The position numbers were made by a program, and so were the translations under genes. From a virus: 64,000 bases of DNA. The stretch's first letter is position 1, and the number at the start of each line of letters is the position of its first letter. The notes under the pieces were generated by a model, which saw only the letters and a program-made list of their open reading frames with translations, was not told where the DNA came from and did no database searches. Location of the stretch: positions 1 through 64,000 of the IMG/VR virus record IMGVR_UViG_3300009127_000250. One strand, given 5' to 3'. This document shows positions 7,675-43,686 of the stretch, one piece after another.

Positions 7675-8013
7675 TTAACTATTTTCCAATAAAAGTCTAA
7701 CAGACTCAAAATGTTTCGGCCTTTTATCTGACGGAAGATCGAGCCATTCCTGTAATTTTATAATCATTTTAAAATCATCTCTGGAATACCGTTTATTAGA
7801 CAAAAGATCTATCATTGAAACATTAAAAATTTGTGAAAGTTTAAAAATTTTTTCCTGGTCCATCCCTTTGGTTCCATTTTCAATTTGAGATACCATACCA
7901 GAACTCTCATAGCCAAGCTTATGGGCAAGATCCATTTGTGTCATGCCATGAATATCCCTAAGTGTTTTAATTTTTTCACCGAGCATTTTTTTAAATTGCT
8001 TTTGTTTAGCCAT
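7675..8013 (-). CDS. XRE-family CI-like repressor
   Basis: HTH_3 MTQMDLAHKLGYESSGMVSQIENG, divergent from the early operon. Confidence 0.85.
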   Translation of the reverse strand: MAKQKQFKKMLGEKIKTLRDIHGMTQMDLAHKLGYESSGMVSQIENGTKGMDQEKIFKLSQIFNVSMIDLLSNKRYSRDDFKMIIKLQEWLDLPSDKRPKHFESVRLLLENS

Positions 8014-8063
8014 GCAGCCACCTCCTTCTTTTATAACCTGAACAAATAACAGAATAAGTTATA

Positions 8064-8140
8064 TCTTCCTAAAAGTAAATCTCTAATAGTAAGAAAAAAA
8101 CAACATATACCTTGACATACATTCTTACTTATAGTAAGAA
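8064..8140. promoter_or_regulatory. Immunity-region operators and rightward promoter
   Basis: Perfect inverted repeat TTCTTACT-tat-AGTAAGAA at 8122-8140, degenerate copies at about 8064-8095, TTGACA at 8112-8117. Confidence 0.7.
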
Positions 8141-8213
8141 CTGCTCATATATATCTAAACTGCAAATAAATTTTCGACGCTATTAATTACATAAGACGCA
8201 AACAGGGGAAACA

Positions 8214-8503: not shown

Positions 8504-9967
8504 TTGTATCCCAAGACTAAAACAAAGCCCTGGCTACACCAAGCCGAAGGCTGGAATCTCGCTAAAAACCACCCTGCTTTTTACTATGCCGTAGACATGG
8601 GTGGCGGAAAAACCAAGATGGGCGTGGACTACTGCACAGGAGTCAACGCCCATCTTGTTTTAGTCCTGTGTCCTAAAAAGGTAATACCGTTGTGGCCCCG
8701 CCAGTTCGATCTGCATTGCGGAGTTGATTTTAGGTTCTTTGCACCTGAAAAGAAAATATCAGTCGCTAAAAAGGCCGTTCTCCTTGAAGATGAAATCCAA
8801 ATGATGCAGGCCGCTAATCTCCGACTGGCCGTTATCCTCAACTATGAAGCCTTCTGGCGTCCACCATTAGGGCCGACCTATAACAAAAAGAACCGCATGG
8901 TCAACCGTGGCCTCCTGATGAAATACCCGTGGGACGTCATGATCTGTGACGAAGCCCACCGGCTTATGGCCCCGGGCGGCACAATGTCCTGGGCGGCCAT
9001 GCGGGTCGGAAAACAGGCCAAACGCAGATTATTCCTATCCGGCACGCCCATGCCATCTTCACCTATTAATATATACGCTCAATTCAGAGCCCTAAACACT
9101 GATATCTTTGGAACAAGATTTACGGACTTCCGAAGGCGCTACTGTGAAATGGGCGGATATGAAGGGCGTCAGATTCTTGAATACATCAATCAAGACGAAC
9201 TGCATCAAAAATTCTACAGCATTGCCTTTCGTGTCGAAACCGATGAAGTCCTCGATCTTCCCGGCGTAAGGCACGAATTACTTAAATGCAAACTCGATCC
9301 CAAAGCCCGCAGAATTTATGACCAGCTTGAAGAAGAATTCGTTGCCCAGGTGGATAGCGGTGAAATCACCGTCCAGAACGCTCTGGTTAAGGGACTTCGC
9401 CTTTCGGAAATCACAGGTGGATTCGTTAAACCTGACGACGGTGTCCGTAAACAGATCGATACCAACAAAATGGACACCCTGATCGAACGGCTCCAAGACC
9501 TTGGAACTGAGTCGGTAGTTATCTTCTATCGTTTCAAGCCCGAAGTTGCCGAAATGAAAAAACGAATCGCTAAAATTAAAATCGGAGACTACAAAGGCCA
9601 GCCCATTTACCGAACTGTAGGCGAAATCTCCGGAGATATTAACGATGAATTAAGATGGATACATAAAGAAATTGATACCGTCTGTGTCCAAATACAGGCA
9701 GGGGGCGAAGGGCTTGATACCCTGAAAAGAGCCAGGTACGGCTTTTTCTACTCTAAGGGCATGTTGGGATACGGCAAGTGGAAACAGGCCGTAAAACGGC
9801 TGGATCGTCCTGGTCAGACACGTAAAGTTTTATTCTATCATCTTGTTGCTCGGAACACTATCGACATGAAGATCGAACGGGGAATCAAGAAGGGCGGCAA
9901 TGTCATAGAATACGTTTTAGAGGAAATGAGAACGCAAAAACCTAAACCATTTGCAAAGGTCGCATAA
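8504..9967 (+). CDS. SNF2-family helicase
   Basis: DMGGGKT, DEAH, LSGTP, RLDRPGQ. Confidence 0.9.
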   Translation: MYPKTKTKPWLHQAEGWNLAKNHPAFYYAVDMGGGKTKMGVDYCTGVNAHLVLVLCPKKVIPLWPRQFDLHCGVDFRFFAPEKKISVAKKAVLLEDEIQMMQAANLRLAVILNYEAFWRPPLGPTYNKKNRMVNRGLLMKYPWDVMICDEAHRLMAPGGTMSWAAMRVGKQAKRRLFLSGTPMPSSPINIYAQFRALNTDIFGTRFTDFRRRYCEMGGYEGRQILEYINQDELHQKFYSIAFRVETDEVLDLPGVRHELLKCKLDPKARRIYDQLEEEFVAQVDSGEITVQNALVKGLRLSEITGGFVKPDDGVRKQIDTNKMDTLIERLQDLGTESVVIFYRFKPEVAEMKKRIAKIKIGDYKGQPIYRTVGEISGDINDELRWIHKEIDTVCVQIQAGGEGLDTLKRARYGFFYSKGMLGYGKWKQAVKRLDRPGQTRKVLFYHLVARNTIDMKIERGIKKGGNVIEYVLEEMRTQKPKPFAKVA

Positions 9968-9971
9968 CTGA

Positions 9972-10046
9972 GCGGGCATAACTCAACGGCAGAGTGGGAG
10001 CCTTCCAAGCTCTTGGTTGAAGGTTCGAATCCTTCTGTCCGCTCCA
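9972..10046 (+). tRNA. tRNA-Gly(TCC)
   Basis: GCGGGCA/TGTCCGC acceptor stem, CTTCCAA anticodon loop, GGTTCGAATCC, CCA. Confidence 0.92.
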
Positions 10047-34651: not shown

Positions 34652-34695
34652 AAAAATTTTATTAACCATCTTACTGAAAGTAAGGAGAATTATTC

Positions 34696-35565
34696 ATGAA
34701 ACAGTATTTAAAGACTATGGTTCGGGGTTGTTATACCGTTCAGAAATTAAGAATTCAGACTGGCAATCGGTTGGTTGCCAACTTTAGGGCCAAGTTGGGT
34801 TTGGATCCGAGTCAGAAGGAAGATGAGCTTGACAAGGAAGGTAAGCGGATCATGGAAGACATTCGGGCTGCTTTTCGGAAGATTACTGACGGTGTTTTGA
34901 GTTTGCCGAACCGGAAGAAATTTAAGGCCGAGGGTGTTATTTCGTCATACACGGAATTTGCTTTGATTTCTCAGTACATTGGACTTGAGGAATCGGAGAA
35001 GCGTCATTTTAAGCAATTAGAGGGTATATTGGCTGAATTTCCGCTTTGGACGAAGTATTTGGAGTCGGTTAAGGGCGTGGGCCCCGCTATGGCCGGTGTG
35101 ATTATTTCGGAGATTGACATCGAAAAGGCGGAGTATCCGTCCTCACTGTGGAAGTATGCGGGTTTGGACGTTGCTGAGGACGGCAAGGGTCGGAGTAAGC
35201 GCAAGGAGCATCTTATTGAGGTTGAATATAAAGCTGCTGACGGGGAGGCCAAGCTTCGAAACAGCATAACGTTCAATCCGTTTTTAAAGACGAAGTTGCT
35301 TGGTGTTCTTGGGACTTCATTTTTGAGATTGGGGCCGGATCGGTCTAATTATGCCAAGACTTATTATGATTACAAGAATCGTCTTGAGAATCATCCGGAC
35401 CATCAAGAAAAGACCAAAATGCATCGTCATCGTATGGCTTTGCGGTATGCGGTGAAGCGTTTTCTTGTGGATCTGCATATTGCGTGGCGTGCGATTGAGG
35501 GTTTACCTGTTTCAGTTGAATACAGTGAGGCCAAGCTTGGCATGGAGCATAAGAAGGCTGCTTAA
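34696..35565 (+). CDS. TIGR-associated Nop-domain protein, TasA-like (IS110 C-terminal-like, no nuclease domain seen)
   Basis: Coiled coil, KGVGPAMAGVIISEI, SSLWKYAGL, FNPFLKT, H..ALR..VKRFL..L..WR..EGLP; directly followed by the array. Confidence 0.85.
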   Translation: MKQYLKTMVRGCYTVQKLRIQTGNRLVANFRAKLGLDPSQKEDELDKEGKRIMEDIRAAFRKITDGVLSLPNRKKFKAEGVISSYTEFALISQYIGLEESEKRHFKQLEGILAEFPLWTKYLESVKGVGPAMAGVIISEIDIEKAEYPSSLWKYAGLDVAEDGKGRSKRKEHLIEVEYKAADGEAKLRNSITFNPFLKTKLLGVLGTSFLRLGPDRSNYAKTYYDYKNRLENHPDHQEKTKMHRHRMALRYAVKRFLVDLHIAWRAIEGLPVSVEYSEAKLGMEHKKAA

Positions 35566-35992
35566 GTCCGTTAGTAACCCTAAGTGTCATAGCGAGTCAT
35601 TGGCATTAAGAAATCCAACATCTTGTAGCGAGTCATCGATATACAGAAACCCTGACATCTTTAGCGTACCGTCCCTGGCAAGAAAACCAGATTAAAGTAG
35701 TGGATCAGAAAGGGTTAGAAATCCAATAAGTTTGAAGTGTGCCAGAAAGGGGGAGAAACCCAATTTACCACAGCGAGTCTATGGAAAAATTAACCCAACA
35801 TAATTTAGCGAGTCATTTGGTGTAAGCAAACCAGCACAATATAGCGAGTCAGGAGGACAAAGAAATCCATTGTCAAATAGCGTGCCAGGAGGTGAGAGTA
35901 ATCCAGTCATTTGTTAGCGAATCAATCCTTACAAGAAATCCAACGAGCAGTAGTGGGTCAGAAAGAAGAAGAAAACCAATCTTGTTCAGCGA
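35564..35992 (+). ncRNA. TIGR array: 11 full units plus a partial leading unit, about 36-nt period
   Basis: Alternating AG(C/T)G(A/T/G)G(T/C)CA-like and AG(A/T/C)AA(T/C/A)CCA-like 9-mers separated by variable 8-10 nt spacers. Confidence 0.9.
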
Positions 35993-36036
35993 TTTTAAAG
36001 TAATTTTAGTTGTTCTTTTTAAATTATAGTTTATAT

Positions 36037-36110
36037 GGCGCGTTGGTGAAGCGGTCGAACACACCGGTCTTTCACGCCGGTATTCACGGGTTCAAATCCC
36101 GTACGCGTCA
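36037..36110 (+). tRNA. tRNA-Glu(TTC), CCA not encoded
   Basis: GGCGCGT/ACGCGTC stem, CTTTCAC loop, GGTTCAAATCC. Confidence 0.88.
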
Positions 36111-36274
36111 CTTTTGTTTTCTTTGGCCTAAGTGCTTTGACCTGATTGTGTCCAGACCATGAGGTACGGGGAGTTCGAAAAATTCGTTCAATGATCCTAT
36201 CAAGGAAGTGTGGCGAGAACAAAAGGGTGACACTCCGGAGAGACGGAGTTTTAGACCAAAGAAAACAGTTTTAT

Positions 36275-36353
36275 AGTCCAGTAGTGAAGTCTGGTCTATC
36301 ACGTCGGCCTGTCACGCCGAAGATCGCGGGTTCAAATCCCGTCTGGACTGCCA
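36275..36353 (+). tRNA. tRNA-Asp(GTC)
   Basis: AGTCCAG/CTGGACT stem, CTGTCAC loop, CCA. Confidence 0.92.
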
Positions 36354-36832: not shown

Positions 36833-36977
36833 TATCGATTTTAGATCTGGTTGATTTGTATTTCCAAATTGGTTCTGAAGGTCTTGAGTTAAAAATCAAA
36901 AACATCGGCAATTGCCCGTATGTGCCGACGTTTTTGTACCAAGCCGTACAACAATTTGCATACAGAGATACAAAATT

Positions 36978-37367
36978 ATGTATATCGAAAAAACACGAAT
37001 ATATTATAAAAGCACAGAGCAAAGAACTATGCCCGCCAGGTTTTTGATTCTGATCCAACACAAAGATAAACCTCTTGGCCCTGACAATTTTCGCGCAATA
37101 GTGCGCAAGGTTGCTTTGCACCAATTTGGTCATTTCATGATGGGAACTGCCAGGATTAAAGGCCATAGCATAACGCTCAGCGGTTCTTACGGCAGTGATG
37201 GATTGCCGCACACCACGGACATCGATGAAGTTTATAATGCTGCCATACCTGTTCCGAAAGAGCTTTATGATGCTTGGAGTGAAGGCGGCGGTCATAACAG
37301 TTGCGGAACCGAAGCCTGTGCTATGCGGGATTGGGCTTTAAAAAACATAAAGGAGCTAACGAAATAA
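36978..37367 (+). CDS. Hypothetical phage protein
   Basis: ORF track frame, internal ATG. Confidence 0.6.
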   Translation: MYIEKTRIYYKSTEQRTMPARFLILIQHKDKPLGPDNFRAIVRKVALHQFGHFMMGTARIKGHSITLSGSYGSDGLPHTTDIDEVYNAAIPVPKELYDAWSEGGGHNSCGTEACAMRDWALKNIKELTK

Positions 37368-41938: not shown

Positions 41939-41997
41939 TTGTTTTCACGGCAAGAAATTTGCCGTGTAACTATAATTTTAAAAAGGAGATTTACCAC

Positions 41998-43686
41998 ATG
42001 ACGGAAGAATTAAAGCACGTATTATTTGCCGACATTAACATCGTTAAGGGTTTTAATGTCAGGGGTAGAGGGCGATTCAAGGGGCCGGACTTTGATGAAC
42101 TTGTTGAATCGATCAAAACACAGGGCATTTTGCAACCGGTTCTTTTAAGGCCAAATGGCAAGGATTACGAATTGATTGCCGGTGAACGGCGTATCAAGGC
42201 TGCTAAGAAAGCCGCTAAGGGCAACGGCGGAGTGAAAGAGCTTCAAATTCCCGCATTGGTTCGTGAAATGACGGACGATCAAGCCATTGAGTTCATGCTG
42301 ACTGAAAATATTCAACGGGACGATCTGACGCCTTTGGAAGAAGCCGAAGGGTTCAAAAGGTATATTGACAACGTTGAAGACGCCGACATCAACGTTATTG
42401 CCGACCGCTGTGGGAAGCCGGCACCGTATGTTCAAAAACGGATTAAGGTACTGGAACTTCCAAAGAAAGTCCTCCAGGCATGGAACAAAGGTTTTCTTAG
42501 TTATGGTCATCTGGAACAATTTATTCGTATTGAACCGAGTGTTGCTTTGAAGCTGTTTAATGAAATGGTTGATGACCATGAAAGTTATGGACGCAAAACC
42601 AGCGTAGATCAACTTCGCCGTTCGATCAATAATTTTTCACCTCAGCTCAAAAATGCTAAATTCAAAACCAAAGAAGCTGGCTGTACGCAATGTCCTCATA
42701 ATTCGGACATTCAGAAGTCTTTATTCGCCAAAGATGATATCGAAAATATGAGCTGTTTGAAGCCGGACTGCTTTGCTGAAAAGCAAGGAGAACATCTAAC
42801 AAAGCACTGGAAAAAAACTGGTTATTATAAGGACCATAAAACTACAGGGTTTGAGTTCAACGAACAGGTTGACAGGGATGCTTACAGGGAATTCGGATTT
42901 GGTGACGGCAGTTTAAAGGAAAAATGCGCTTCTTGCGATTATTTTAAGTCCGTTATCCGGCTGGACGGAAGCGTATGGGCGCAAAAAGCTTGCTTCGGTG
43001 AAGAAAGTTGTTTCAACGCTAAAGAAAAACAGGCTCCGAAAGACCCACAGGCCCAAGCTACTCTGGATATGCAGGCTAAAAAGGAACGTACACAGCAACG
43101 TTCTCAAAAGCATGGCGTTGAGTTTCGGGAAATTCATTTTGAAACATCTATTCCAAAAAAGATTCAGGCCATCAAGTCGAACAATGAAAAGTCCTATCGG
43201 CTGTCTTTAATTGCCATCATCAGCGCCAGGCCGGAACTACATGAAAAGCTCAATGAAGATTTCAAGCTTGGCGGAAGCAAATGGTTCCGTATGGGCGACA
43301 AGGACATCGTTGATTTTGTCAATGGCCTGGACATTAGTTCGGTTAAACAACTTCTGCAAACCACGGCAGTTGAAACCATTATGAGTTCAGGATTTTCAGC
43401 AAGCGGCCGTTTCAAAATTGCTGATCTTGTCGGTGTTGATCTTCAAGCAGAATGGATGATAACCGAAGATTTCCTTAAAAAGAAACAAAAAGCTGAAATC
43501 ATCACTCTGCTCAACGATGATAAGTTCAAGATTGCAGAACGTCCGGAAATTAAGGACTACCTGGGGCAAACTCTTGGTAACGGCAGCTTTGAAGTTTGCA
43601 AAAAGGGCGAGTTGATCGATTTGCTTATTAAATCCGGAACTGATCTGGCCGGCATTGTTCCCGAAGAAATCTTAAAAGATTCTTAA
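41998..43686 (+). CDS. ParB/Spo0J-domain protein with long Cys-rich C-terminus
   Basis: GILQPVLLR, IAGERR, ENIQRDDL.PLEEA. Confidence 0.88.
   Translation: MTEELKHVLFADINIVKGFNVRGRGRFKGPDFDELVESIKTQGILQPVLLRPNGKDYELIAGERRIKAAKKAAKGNGGVKELQIPALVREMTDDQAIEFMLTENIQRDDLTPLEEAEGFKRYIDNVEDADINVIADRCGKPAPYVQKRIKVLELPKKVLQAWNKGFLSYGHLEQFIRIEPSVALKLFNEMVDDHESYGRKTSVDQLRRSINNFSPQLKNAKFKTKEAGCTQCPHNSDIQKSLFAKDDIENMSCLKPDCFAEKQGEHLTKHWKKTGYYKDHKTTGFEFNEQVDRDAYREFGFGDGSLKEKCASCDYFKSVIRLDGSVWAQKACFGEESCFNAKEKQAPKDPQAQATLDMQAKKERTQQRSQKHGVEFREIHFETSIPKKIQAIKSNNEKSYRLSLIAIISARPELHEKLNEDFKLGGSKWFRMGDKDIVDFVNGLDISSVKQLLQTTAVETIMSSGFSASGRFKIADLVGVDLQAEWMITEDFLKKKQKAEIITLLNDDKFKIAERPEIKDYLGQTLGNGSFEVCKKGELIDLLIKSGTDLAGIVPEEILKDS

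Follow-up and report, generated by a model that had tools for sequence, protein, structure and literature searches.

The window, by which we mean the whole analysed stretch of 64 kb from a 74,264-base IMG/VR virus record, carries a bona fide but ordinary TIGR-TasA locus. We consider it likely that its guide array is functional and serves a bind-and-block mechanism, and that the resemblance of several of its reconstructed targets to translation-initiation sites arises mainly from base composition together with a few related units. The record is linear and ~73% complete, was found in marine/seawater metagenomes, and encodes a topoisomerase II, a helicase, a ParB-like protein, a large terminase and a portal. 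No DNA-level relatives of the phage were found in the phage collection, nor did a single-protein scan of viral contigs recover any. The locus itself is represented in DNA contigs of four marine runs, by parts only and at low depth, with the array portion being identical where covered; among the runs listed for it, none is of RNA. The elements of the locus and its neighborhood are as follows:

34696..35565, plus strand: tas gene of the TasA type, encoding 289 aa with a coiled coil and a Nop domain and without a nuclease domain
35566..35590, plus strand: 5'-truncated leading unit, comprising a loop-like AGTAACCCT and one spacer B, starting right after the tas stop codon
35591..35987, plus strand: dual-repeat TIGR array with 11 full units (U1 to U11), each consisting of edge AGCGAGTCA, 9-nt spacer A, loop AGAAATCCA and 9-nt spacer B
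35699..35771, plus strand: U4 and U5, with spacers A GAAAGGGTT and GAAAGGGGG, respectively, and spacers B that begin with AT
35843..35915, plus strand: U8 and U9, with spacers A GGAGGACAA and GGAGGTGAG, respectively
35952..35987, plus strand: U11, with spacer A GAAAGAAGA and spacer B ATCTTGTTC
35988..35995, plus strand: 3'-truncated terminal edge repeat AGCGATTT
36037-36111: tRNA-Glu gene, directly after the array
36275-36353: tRNA-Asp gene, after the array and past the tRNA-Glu gene
41959-43686: ParB-like gene, 6 kb downstream of the array

The protein encoded by the tas gene is of the TasA type, i.e. a Nop domain with a coiled coil and no nuclease, and the preliminary description had rightly called it nuclease-less. 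In phmmer searches its central part recovered TaTasR (9mty, 2e-8) and TasH (21kl, 1e-6). As query residue 15 is aligned to TaTasR residue 124, placing the start of the phage protein at about TaTasR residue 110, the RuvC part of TasR has no counterpart in it. An AF2 model based on 23 homologs (pLDDT 81) displays long helices and one hairpin only; Foldseek searches with this model returned the TasH/TasR cryo-EM structures as the best matches (E ~1e-8, probability 1.0), followed by the IS621 recombinase. The sole Pfam match was to Transposase_20, the related IS110 C-terminal family, with no nuclease family being detected by Pfam in the protein. Thus, the Nop domain and coiled-coil dimerisation typical of TIGR-Tas are present (phmmer, AF2 model), and the N-terminal RuvC/HNH module is absent, as in the TasA subtype (alignment start, model and Pfam). 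Homologs of the phage Tas number >2400. Two residues of its C-terminal tail, Y276 and H285, are invariant in the 23 homologs; dual-repeat Tas proteins possess a tigRNA-processing tyrosine/histidine dyad in that tail, which hints that Y276/H285 might be such a dyad. Separately, we observed a palindrome, CTTACTGAAAGTAAG, at window positions 34670-34684, which lies immediately 5' of the tas SD and overlaps with it.

The array begins at the tas stop codon with the truncated leading unit; in published TIGR arrays, the first element is a truncated edge repeat. A letter-by-letter check revealed that the units are mostly 36 nt in length, with U4 and U9 being 37 nt and U6 a degenerate unit of 35 nt. 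The same check found every spacer quoted in the preliminary description, whose range (35699-35992) spans U4-U11 in the distal part of the array, at the place given for it. Both the edge and the loop repeats start with AG and end with (C/T)CA, the CA being box-C-like. The dual-repeat architecture of TIGR-Tas is hence plainly present, and it is shared by ~90 related loci with arrays on the tas strand only; in the window too, the repeat profile detected units on that strand only. For comparison, we fetched 102 relatives of the locus from viral and genome contigs, in which the repeat profile identified ~1100 units, with the tas strand carrying almost all of them; 980 unique guides from these related arrays constitute the family reference used below.

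A striking regularity links adjacent units: position 6 of the edge repeat of one unit pairs with position 3 of the edge of the next unit in 11/11 cases in the window (8 G-C and 3 A-T), the partner of G6 in the U11 edge, a C, being contributed by the terminal edge repeat at 35988..35995. Among ~1050 such pairs in the family there are 962 G-C, 71 A-T, 10 G-T and 7 other combinations, i.e. 1043/1050 are canonical or wobble pairs. The covariation of edge position 6 is with the edge of the next unit and not with the same edge, and corresponds to a covarying extra pair between the edge halves of one tigRNA, as expected of TIGR-Tas. In the TasR structure the processed tigRNA is closed by an inter-edge pair. 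This covarying pair, present in both the window and the family, argues for selection acting on the array. The covariation can also be seen as direct sequence evidence, in its own right, for the closing pair of processed tigRNAs.

Downstream of the array lie two of the five tRNA genes of the window. At some TasA loci, the operon includes parB-like genes (Faure 2025, PMC12045711); in contrast to these, the ParB-like gene of the window and its tas/array are not adjacent. A contig from marine run X1, corresponding to window positions ~35975-36004, ends in a variant of the last unit with ATCTTGATC as spacer B in lieu of ATCTTGTTC and with different flanks. Hence, a related strain with a diverged array co-occurs with the phage.

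A whole-contig scan with the repeat profile uncovered further guide units outside of the main array:

20807..20986, plus strand: second guide set of five units, built on the same repeats and located within ORF 20153-22072, which is intact
22086..22121, plus strand: single extra guide unit (edge 15.3 bits, loop 15.1 bits), just past the stop of ORF 20153-22072

ORF 20153-22072 is primase/polymerase-like (PHROG match). Arrays inside tas genes are on record in published work, which does not mention arrays inside other genes. None of the six extra guides of the window phage has a start-site-like target. In a complete 106-kb relative (G001, the record of locus L078), we observed 35 units divided among three array blocks, at 2184-2581, 7751-8202 and 9263-9983, one of which is at a distance of 5 kb from tas; the window phage is thus not alone in having dispersed arrays.

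Any reading of these guides in terms of targets depends on how the two spacers are assembled. The spacers of tigRNA1 of TaTasR are UGCAAGCCC and UUGCCUUAG, and its DNA target is TGCAAGCCC followed by CTAAGGCAA, i.e. A + rc(B) (both from Table S3 of Faure 2025, PMC12045711). The text of that paper is ambiguous on the cut position; accordingly, it is from its oligo table that we take the geometry to be A + rc(B), the very geometry that had been assumed in the preliminary description. As gaps of 1-2 bp are tolerated between the target halves (Faure 2025, PMC12045711), gaps of 0-2 were allowed in all our target searches. The published oligos dispose of two alternative readings of the degenerate, AT-rich U6: as rc(A)+B it has one 1-mismatch match with a 2-nt gap at 36973-36992, and as rc(B)+A it acquires an 'ATG AAA G' look. 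A colinear complement of the form rc(B)-N7-11-rc(A) was searched for in the 74-kb contig and yielded nothing at <=2 mismatches. We also set aside a likeness spanning the junctions of units (GAGAACAA in U9/U11 and AACAAGAT in U1/U11), for which permutation gave P 0.02-0.4 and the wrong geometry scored alike.

We then evaluated the start-site look with a fixed rule, namely an SD core followed 3-10 nt later by ATG, GTG or TTG. Three of the 11 window targets (U5, U8 and U9) conform to it, with the combination of SD and ATG found in U9 only, while the targets of U4, U5 and U11 have just a GAAAG start and an AT end. The SD and start-codon look is genuine in U9 and U8 and less pronounced in U5, U4 and U11; the assertion that about half of the 11 units look like translation-initiation regions is overstated. 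The nonsense reading A+B also gives 3/11 in the window under the same rule, and 4.2% in the family. Among the family guides, the rule is matched by 2.9% of the true A+rc(B) pairs and by 2.9% of randomly re-paired ones. SD-like 4-mers occur in 10.4% of family A spacers and 9.4% of B spacers, which is about the expectation from composition. What does set the window apart is a spacer A starting with G[GA]A[GA]G, which is seen in 5/11 units as against 0.7% of the 980 family guides.

A more graded measure was obtained from a start-site profile built from 70 start sites of the window phage, which favor GAAAGG/AAGGAG SD sequences, with the 95th percentile of the family as the threshold. Scored in this way, the guides of the family do not resemble start sites more than random genome 18-mers do. 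When read as A+rc(B), 4/11 window targets exceed the threshold (U4, U5, U6 and U9; the scores of U4 and U5 are 6.0 and 5.8), with the implied start codon consistently at the 3' end of the site (offsets -17 to -11); the other three readings give 0, 0 and 1 above it. At face value, before controls, the significance of 4/11 is ~P=0.002. Shuffling letters within spacers leaves 2.1/11 above the threshold (P=0.13; for the summed score P=0.037), and random re-pairing of the window's own A and B spacers leaves 3.3/11 (P=0.40). Against its own shuffles U9 stands out with P=0.009, and U4 weakly with P=0.04. Since shuffles and re-pairing retain most of it, the signal is mostly one of composition, i.e. 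of purine-rich A and pyrimidine-rich B spacers.

This compositional skew is itself a feature of the family. The purine content of the A and B spacers is 68% and 44.5%, respectively, in the window, versus 59% and 60% in the family, making the window the second most A/B purine-asymmetric of 65 non-redundant arrays. Throughout the family, arrays differ in the sign and extent of their A/B asymmetry by more than sampling allows (9.68 observed versus a null of 4.68 +/- 0.83). As the asymmetry is specific to each array, the reconstructed targets within one array share strand polarity. We observed opposite signs in different arrays: L078 and L076 are skewed in one direction, and L009, L027 and the window in the other.

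Neither in the window nor in the family is there an enrichment at -20..+5 of coding starts beyond the composition and pairing controls. The proposals that the guides are enriched at gene starts and that the system silences genes there are thus countered by the lack of a family trend, by the largely compositional nature of the window signal and by the six ordinary guides elsewhere in the phage. As a property of the array, the aiming of guides at gene starts is not supported.

Direct searches for targets are in keeping with a locus that does not address its own genome. Within the 74-kb contig, even the best matches to A+rc(B) contain 3-5 mismatches and are no better than those of mispaired controls. 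We extended the search to 221 own guides of 11 phage genomes (ten fetched ones and the 74-kb record of the window, 7 of them >=94% complete) and found 0 self-targets at <=1 mismatch, 1 at 2 and 26 at 3 mismatches, with mispaired sets in the same 11 genomes giving 0-2 matches at 2 mismatches and 33-37 at 3. The phage TasA arrays examined are not aimed at their own genomes. A self-regulating phage guide system was rejected on account of the absence of own-genome matches at <=1 mismatch in this set, and autoregulation of tas was likewise discarded, with the tas start region AAGGAGAATTATTCATG matching none of the guides. An all-against-all comparison of 937 guides with 0.59 Mb of related loci showed no excess over mispaired sets; a guide match on the tas start of another phage is one of two 1-mismatch cross-locus matches, a number equal to that of mispaired controls.

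Exact scans were conducted against IMG/VR for U3, U4, U5, U8, U9 and U11, and against JGI metagenomes for U5. The U9 target has 11 exact IMG/VR matches in nine distinct sequences, and every one of these has the ATG after GGAGGTGAG as the first codon of an ORF; six distinct ORFs are >=49 aa, and the genes differ. The U8 target has 9 exact matches, with an ORF >=100 aa beginning at the 3' end in 6/9. For U3 there are 2 matches, and for U4 there are 6, of which 0/6 are at gene starts and none is followed by G. U5 has 1 exact match in IMG/VR and 50 scattered metagenome matches; a G comes next in 17/50, and an ORF >=85 aa follows in seven distinct cases among those. The 61 exact IMG/VR matches of U11 are mostly within coding regions of abundant phage groups. 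The exact public matches are scattered over unrelated contigs, and no contig was matched by two guides in these scans. Hence, U8 and U9 resemble start sites, yet nothing in their exact matches identifies a target.

A side lead came from a tas prophage relative in the complete chromosome of Sporomusa aerivorans (L099), with 42% identity and 14 guides. Thirteen of the prophage guides were compared with the 6.5-Mb chromosome, and three have 1-mismatch sites against ~0.4-0.7 expected. The places concerned are:

L099:2230-2301: S. aerivorans prophage guides, adjacent units
L283:2001-2018, L284:2001-2018 and L285:2001-2020: sites of the three guides in the chromosome

The first site, with 17/18 bases matched, is in the codY-flgB intergenic region, downstream of codY and ~65-82 nt upstream of flgB, and sits on the only block of this region that is conserved in three Sporomusa species. 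One of the other two sites is inside an NlpC/P60 hydrolase gene and the other is intergenic. The two gap-free matches both cover 17/18 bases with the mismatch at spacer A position 5, and their guides are adjacent units with an aberrant edge ending in TCG; the site of the third guide combines one mismatch with a 2-nt gap. No perfect guide match was found in genomes of the genus Sporomusa, and the four guides of a lysogen-like Selenomonadales MAG (L102) gave no match at <=1 mismatch. As a candidate target the flgB-upstream match is suggestive at best; if real, the target class would be a host promoter (that of flgB in the flagellar operon) and not a ribosome-binding site.

Taken together, we favor a model in which the array is transcribed with or after tasA and would be cut into 36-nt tigRNAs, each of which would load a TasA dimer. 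The two 9-nt spacers would then each pair with a different strand of a DNA site of 18-20 bp, read as A + rc(B). With the nuclease absent, TasA would block rather than cut such a site, presumably as a repressor or roadblock, and the targets would lie outside the phage's own genome. The start-site look of the array, in this model, would stem mainly from the A/B strand asymmetry in composition and from a few related, non-independent units. Repression of this kind has precedent: the stem-loop TasA MbTasA and dead TasR repress transcription in E. coli with engineered guides (Xu et al., bioRxiv 2026, 10.64898/2026.09.09.750476). RNA-guided repression by TasA is therefore already known from that 2026 preprint, and by analogy the dual-repeat TasA may act likewise. 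The CRISPRi-like component of the preliminary description is thus well founded for those relatives, while its focus on gene starts is unsupported.

We think it unlikely that, as that description would have it, a subset of the units (U4, U5, U8, U9, U11 and perhaps U6) targets the translation-initiation DNA of host or rival-phage genes, with TasA at the 5' end of a gene blocking transcription as a natural CRISPRi. The window array is a clear outlier of the family in its SD-like spacer A starts and in the targets above the 95th percentile; the signal is tied to reading the sites in the correct geometry and orientation; the purine-rich spacers resemble the phage's own SD style; natural U8/U9 sites are mostly at an SD and start (11/11 U9 and 6/9 U8 matches); and guided TasA proteins do repress transcription (Xu 2026). 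Set against this, most of the signal disappears with composition and mispairing controls, the five SD-like units are related to each other, there is no trend in the family, the six other guides of the phage are ordinary, exact U4/U11 matches are not at gene starts and two guides never match one contig. Moreover, the array was picked by eye as one among thousands, for which a P of ~1e-3 is not compelling. The stronger proposition, that the phage specialised part of its TasA array for SD and start-codon DNA of host or rival-phage genes, with spacer A always being sense, strikes us as doubtful; if true, it would be the first natural target class for any TIGR system.

Another account of the same units holds that one or two ancestral units gave rise to the SD-like spacers through duplication and divergence, such that their 5' ends were inherited and not selected by targets. 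U4, U5 and U11 share the edge variant AGTG, a spacer A with GAAAG and a spacer B with AT; the edge end TGCCA is common to U5/U9, and GGAGG is common to spacer A of U8/U9. Three spacer pairs of the window array share 7-mers, as against 0.1-0.3 expected, and unit pairs with a Hamming distance <=6/18 are ~10 times commoner within arrays (0.9%) than between them (0.08%), on the basis of which unit duplication and divergence may be one route of array growth. We nevertheless rate the chances of this account for the SD-like spacers as low: in other respects the B spacers of these related units resemble one another only at chance level, the likeness resides mainly in the five leading letters of spacer A, a pattern that neutral drift following duplication of a whole unit would not predict, and AGTG is explained by pairing with A6 of the preceding edge rather than by linkage to the spacer.

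Action on RNA fares worse. The suggestion in the preliminary description that the system works on mRNA is unlikely, because spacer A equals the sense strand, leaving only spacer B to pair with a sense transcript, and because TasR did not cut RNA substrates (Faure 2025, PMC12045711). In a box C/D snoRNP-like version, SD-like A spacers would pair not with DNA but with RNA, such as the anti-SD tail of 16S rRNA or another structured RNA. The reverse complement of the U9 spacer A, CTCACCTCC, does contain CACCTCC, which is a widely conserved anti-SD core, and Tas is a Nop-domain protein related to the snoRNP proteins; however, an SD-like sequence complements the anti-SD by definition, TasR is inactive on RNA substrates and the solved Tas complexes have DNA on both spacers, making this version highly improbable.

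What the natural targets of TIGR-Tas are is a question posed by both Faure 2025 (PMC12045711) and Xu 2026 (10.64898/2026.09.09.750476), the latter stating that they cannot yet be determined. A genuine bias of guides to gene starts would name a biological role for the nuclease-less TasA. The present results narrow the field, in that the phage TasA arrays examined lack own-genome targets and their guides are no more start-like than random DNA, and they add the consistent strand polarity of arrays as a feature that any target model must explain. They also teach that mispaired and shuffled controls are needed before 18-nt reconstructed targets are read by eye.

Among known systems, the locus is closest to dual-repeat TIGR-TasA as exemplified by FpTasA of Flavonifractor plautii (Faure et al., Science 2025, PMC12045711). 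Both feature a solo, phage-borne Nop-domain Tas, a downstream series of 36-nt units in which edge repeats alternate with loop repeats, two 9-nt spacers and truncated first and last edges, as well as adjacent edge repeats that pair with the support of covariation. The window departs from the published examples in having AG instead of UG as box D in both repeats and TCA as box C of the edge. Its repeat motif differs from the UG...CCA of TasR arrays and is common to edge and loop, as in the published divergent arrays. Further differences are the guide units at two more places in the phage, one of which is in a replication-gene ORF, and the region 3' of the array, where no terminator-like hairpin was found and the tRNA-Glu gene is present instead.

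In terms of mechanism, MbTasA and dead TasR (Xu 2026) offer the nearest parallel, with a nuclease-less Tas, guided DNA binding and a transcription block, i.e. the mechanism advanced in the preliminary description; unlike the dual-repeat TasA of the window, they use stem-loop tigRNAs and were studied with engineered guides in E. coli. At a further remove, dCas9 CRISPRi and the nuclease-free CRISPR types IV and V-M similarly hinder transcription or replication by guided DNA binding without cutting. These are, however, unrelated proteins that employ one long spacer on one strand along with a PAM, whereas TIGR-TasA has two 9-nt spacers on opposite strands and no PAM. Finally, the box C/D snoRNPs of archaea and eukaryotes, in which Nop5/Nop56/58 is combined with a two-guide snoRNA, base-pair with RNA and bring in a methylase, in contrast to the Tas complexes solved so far, which pair with two DNA strands.
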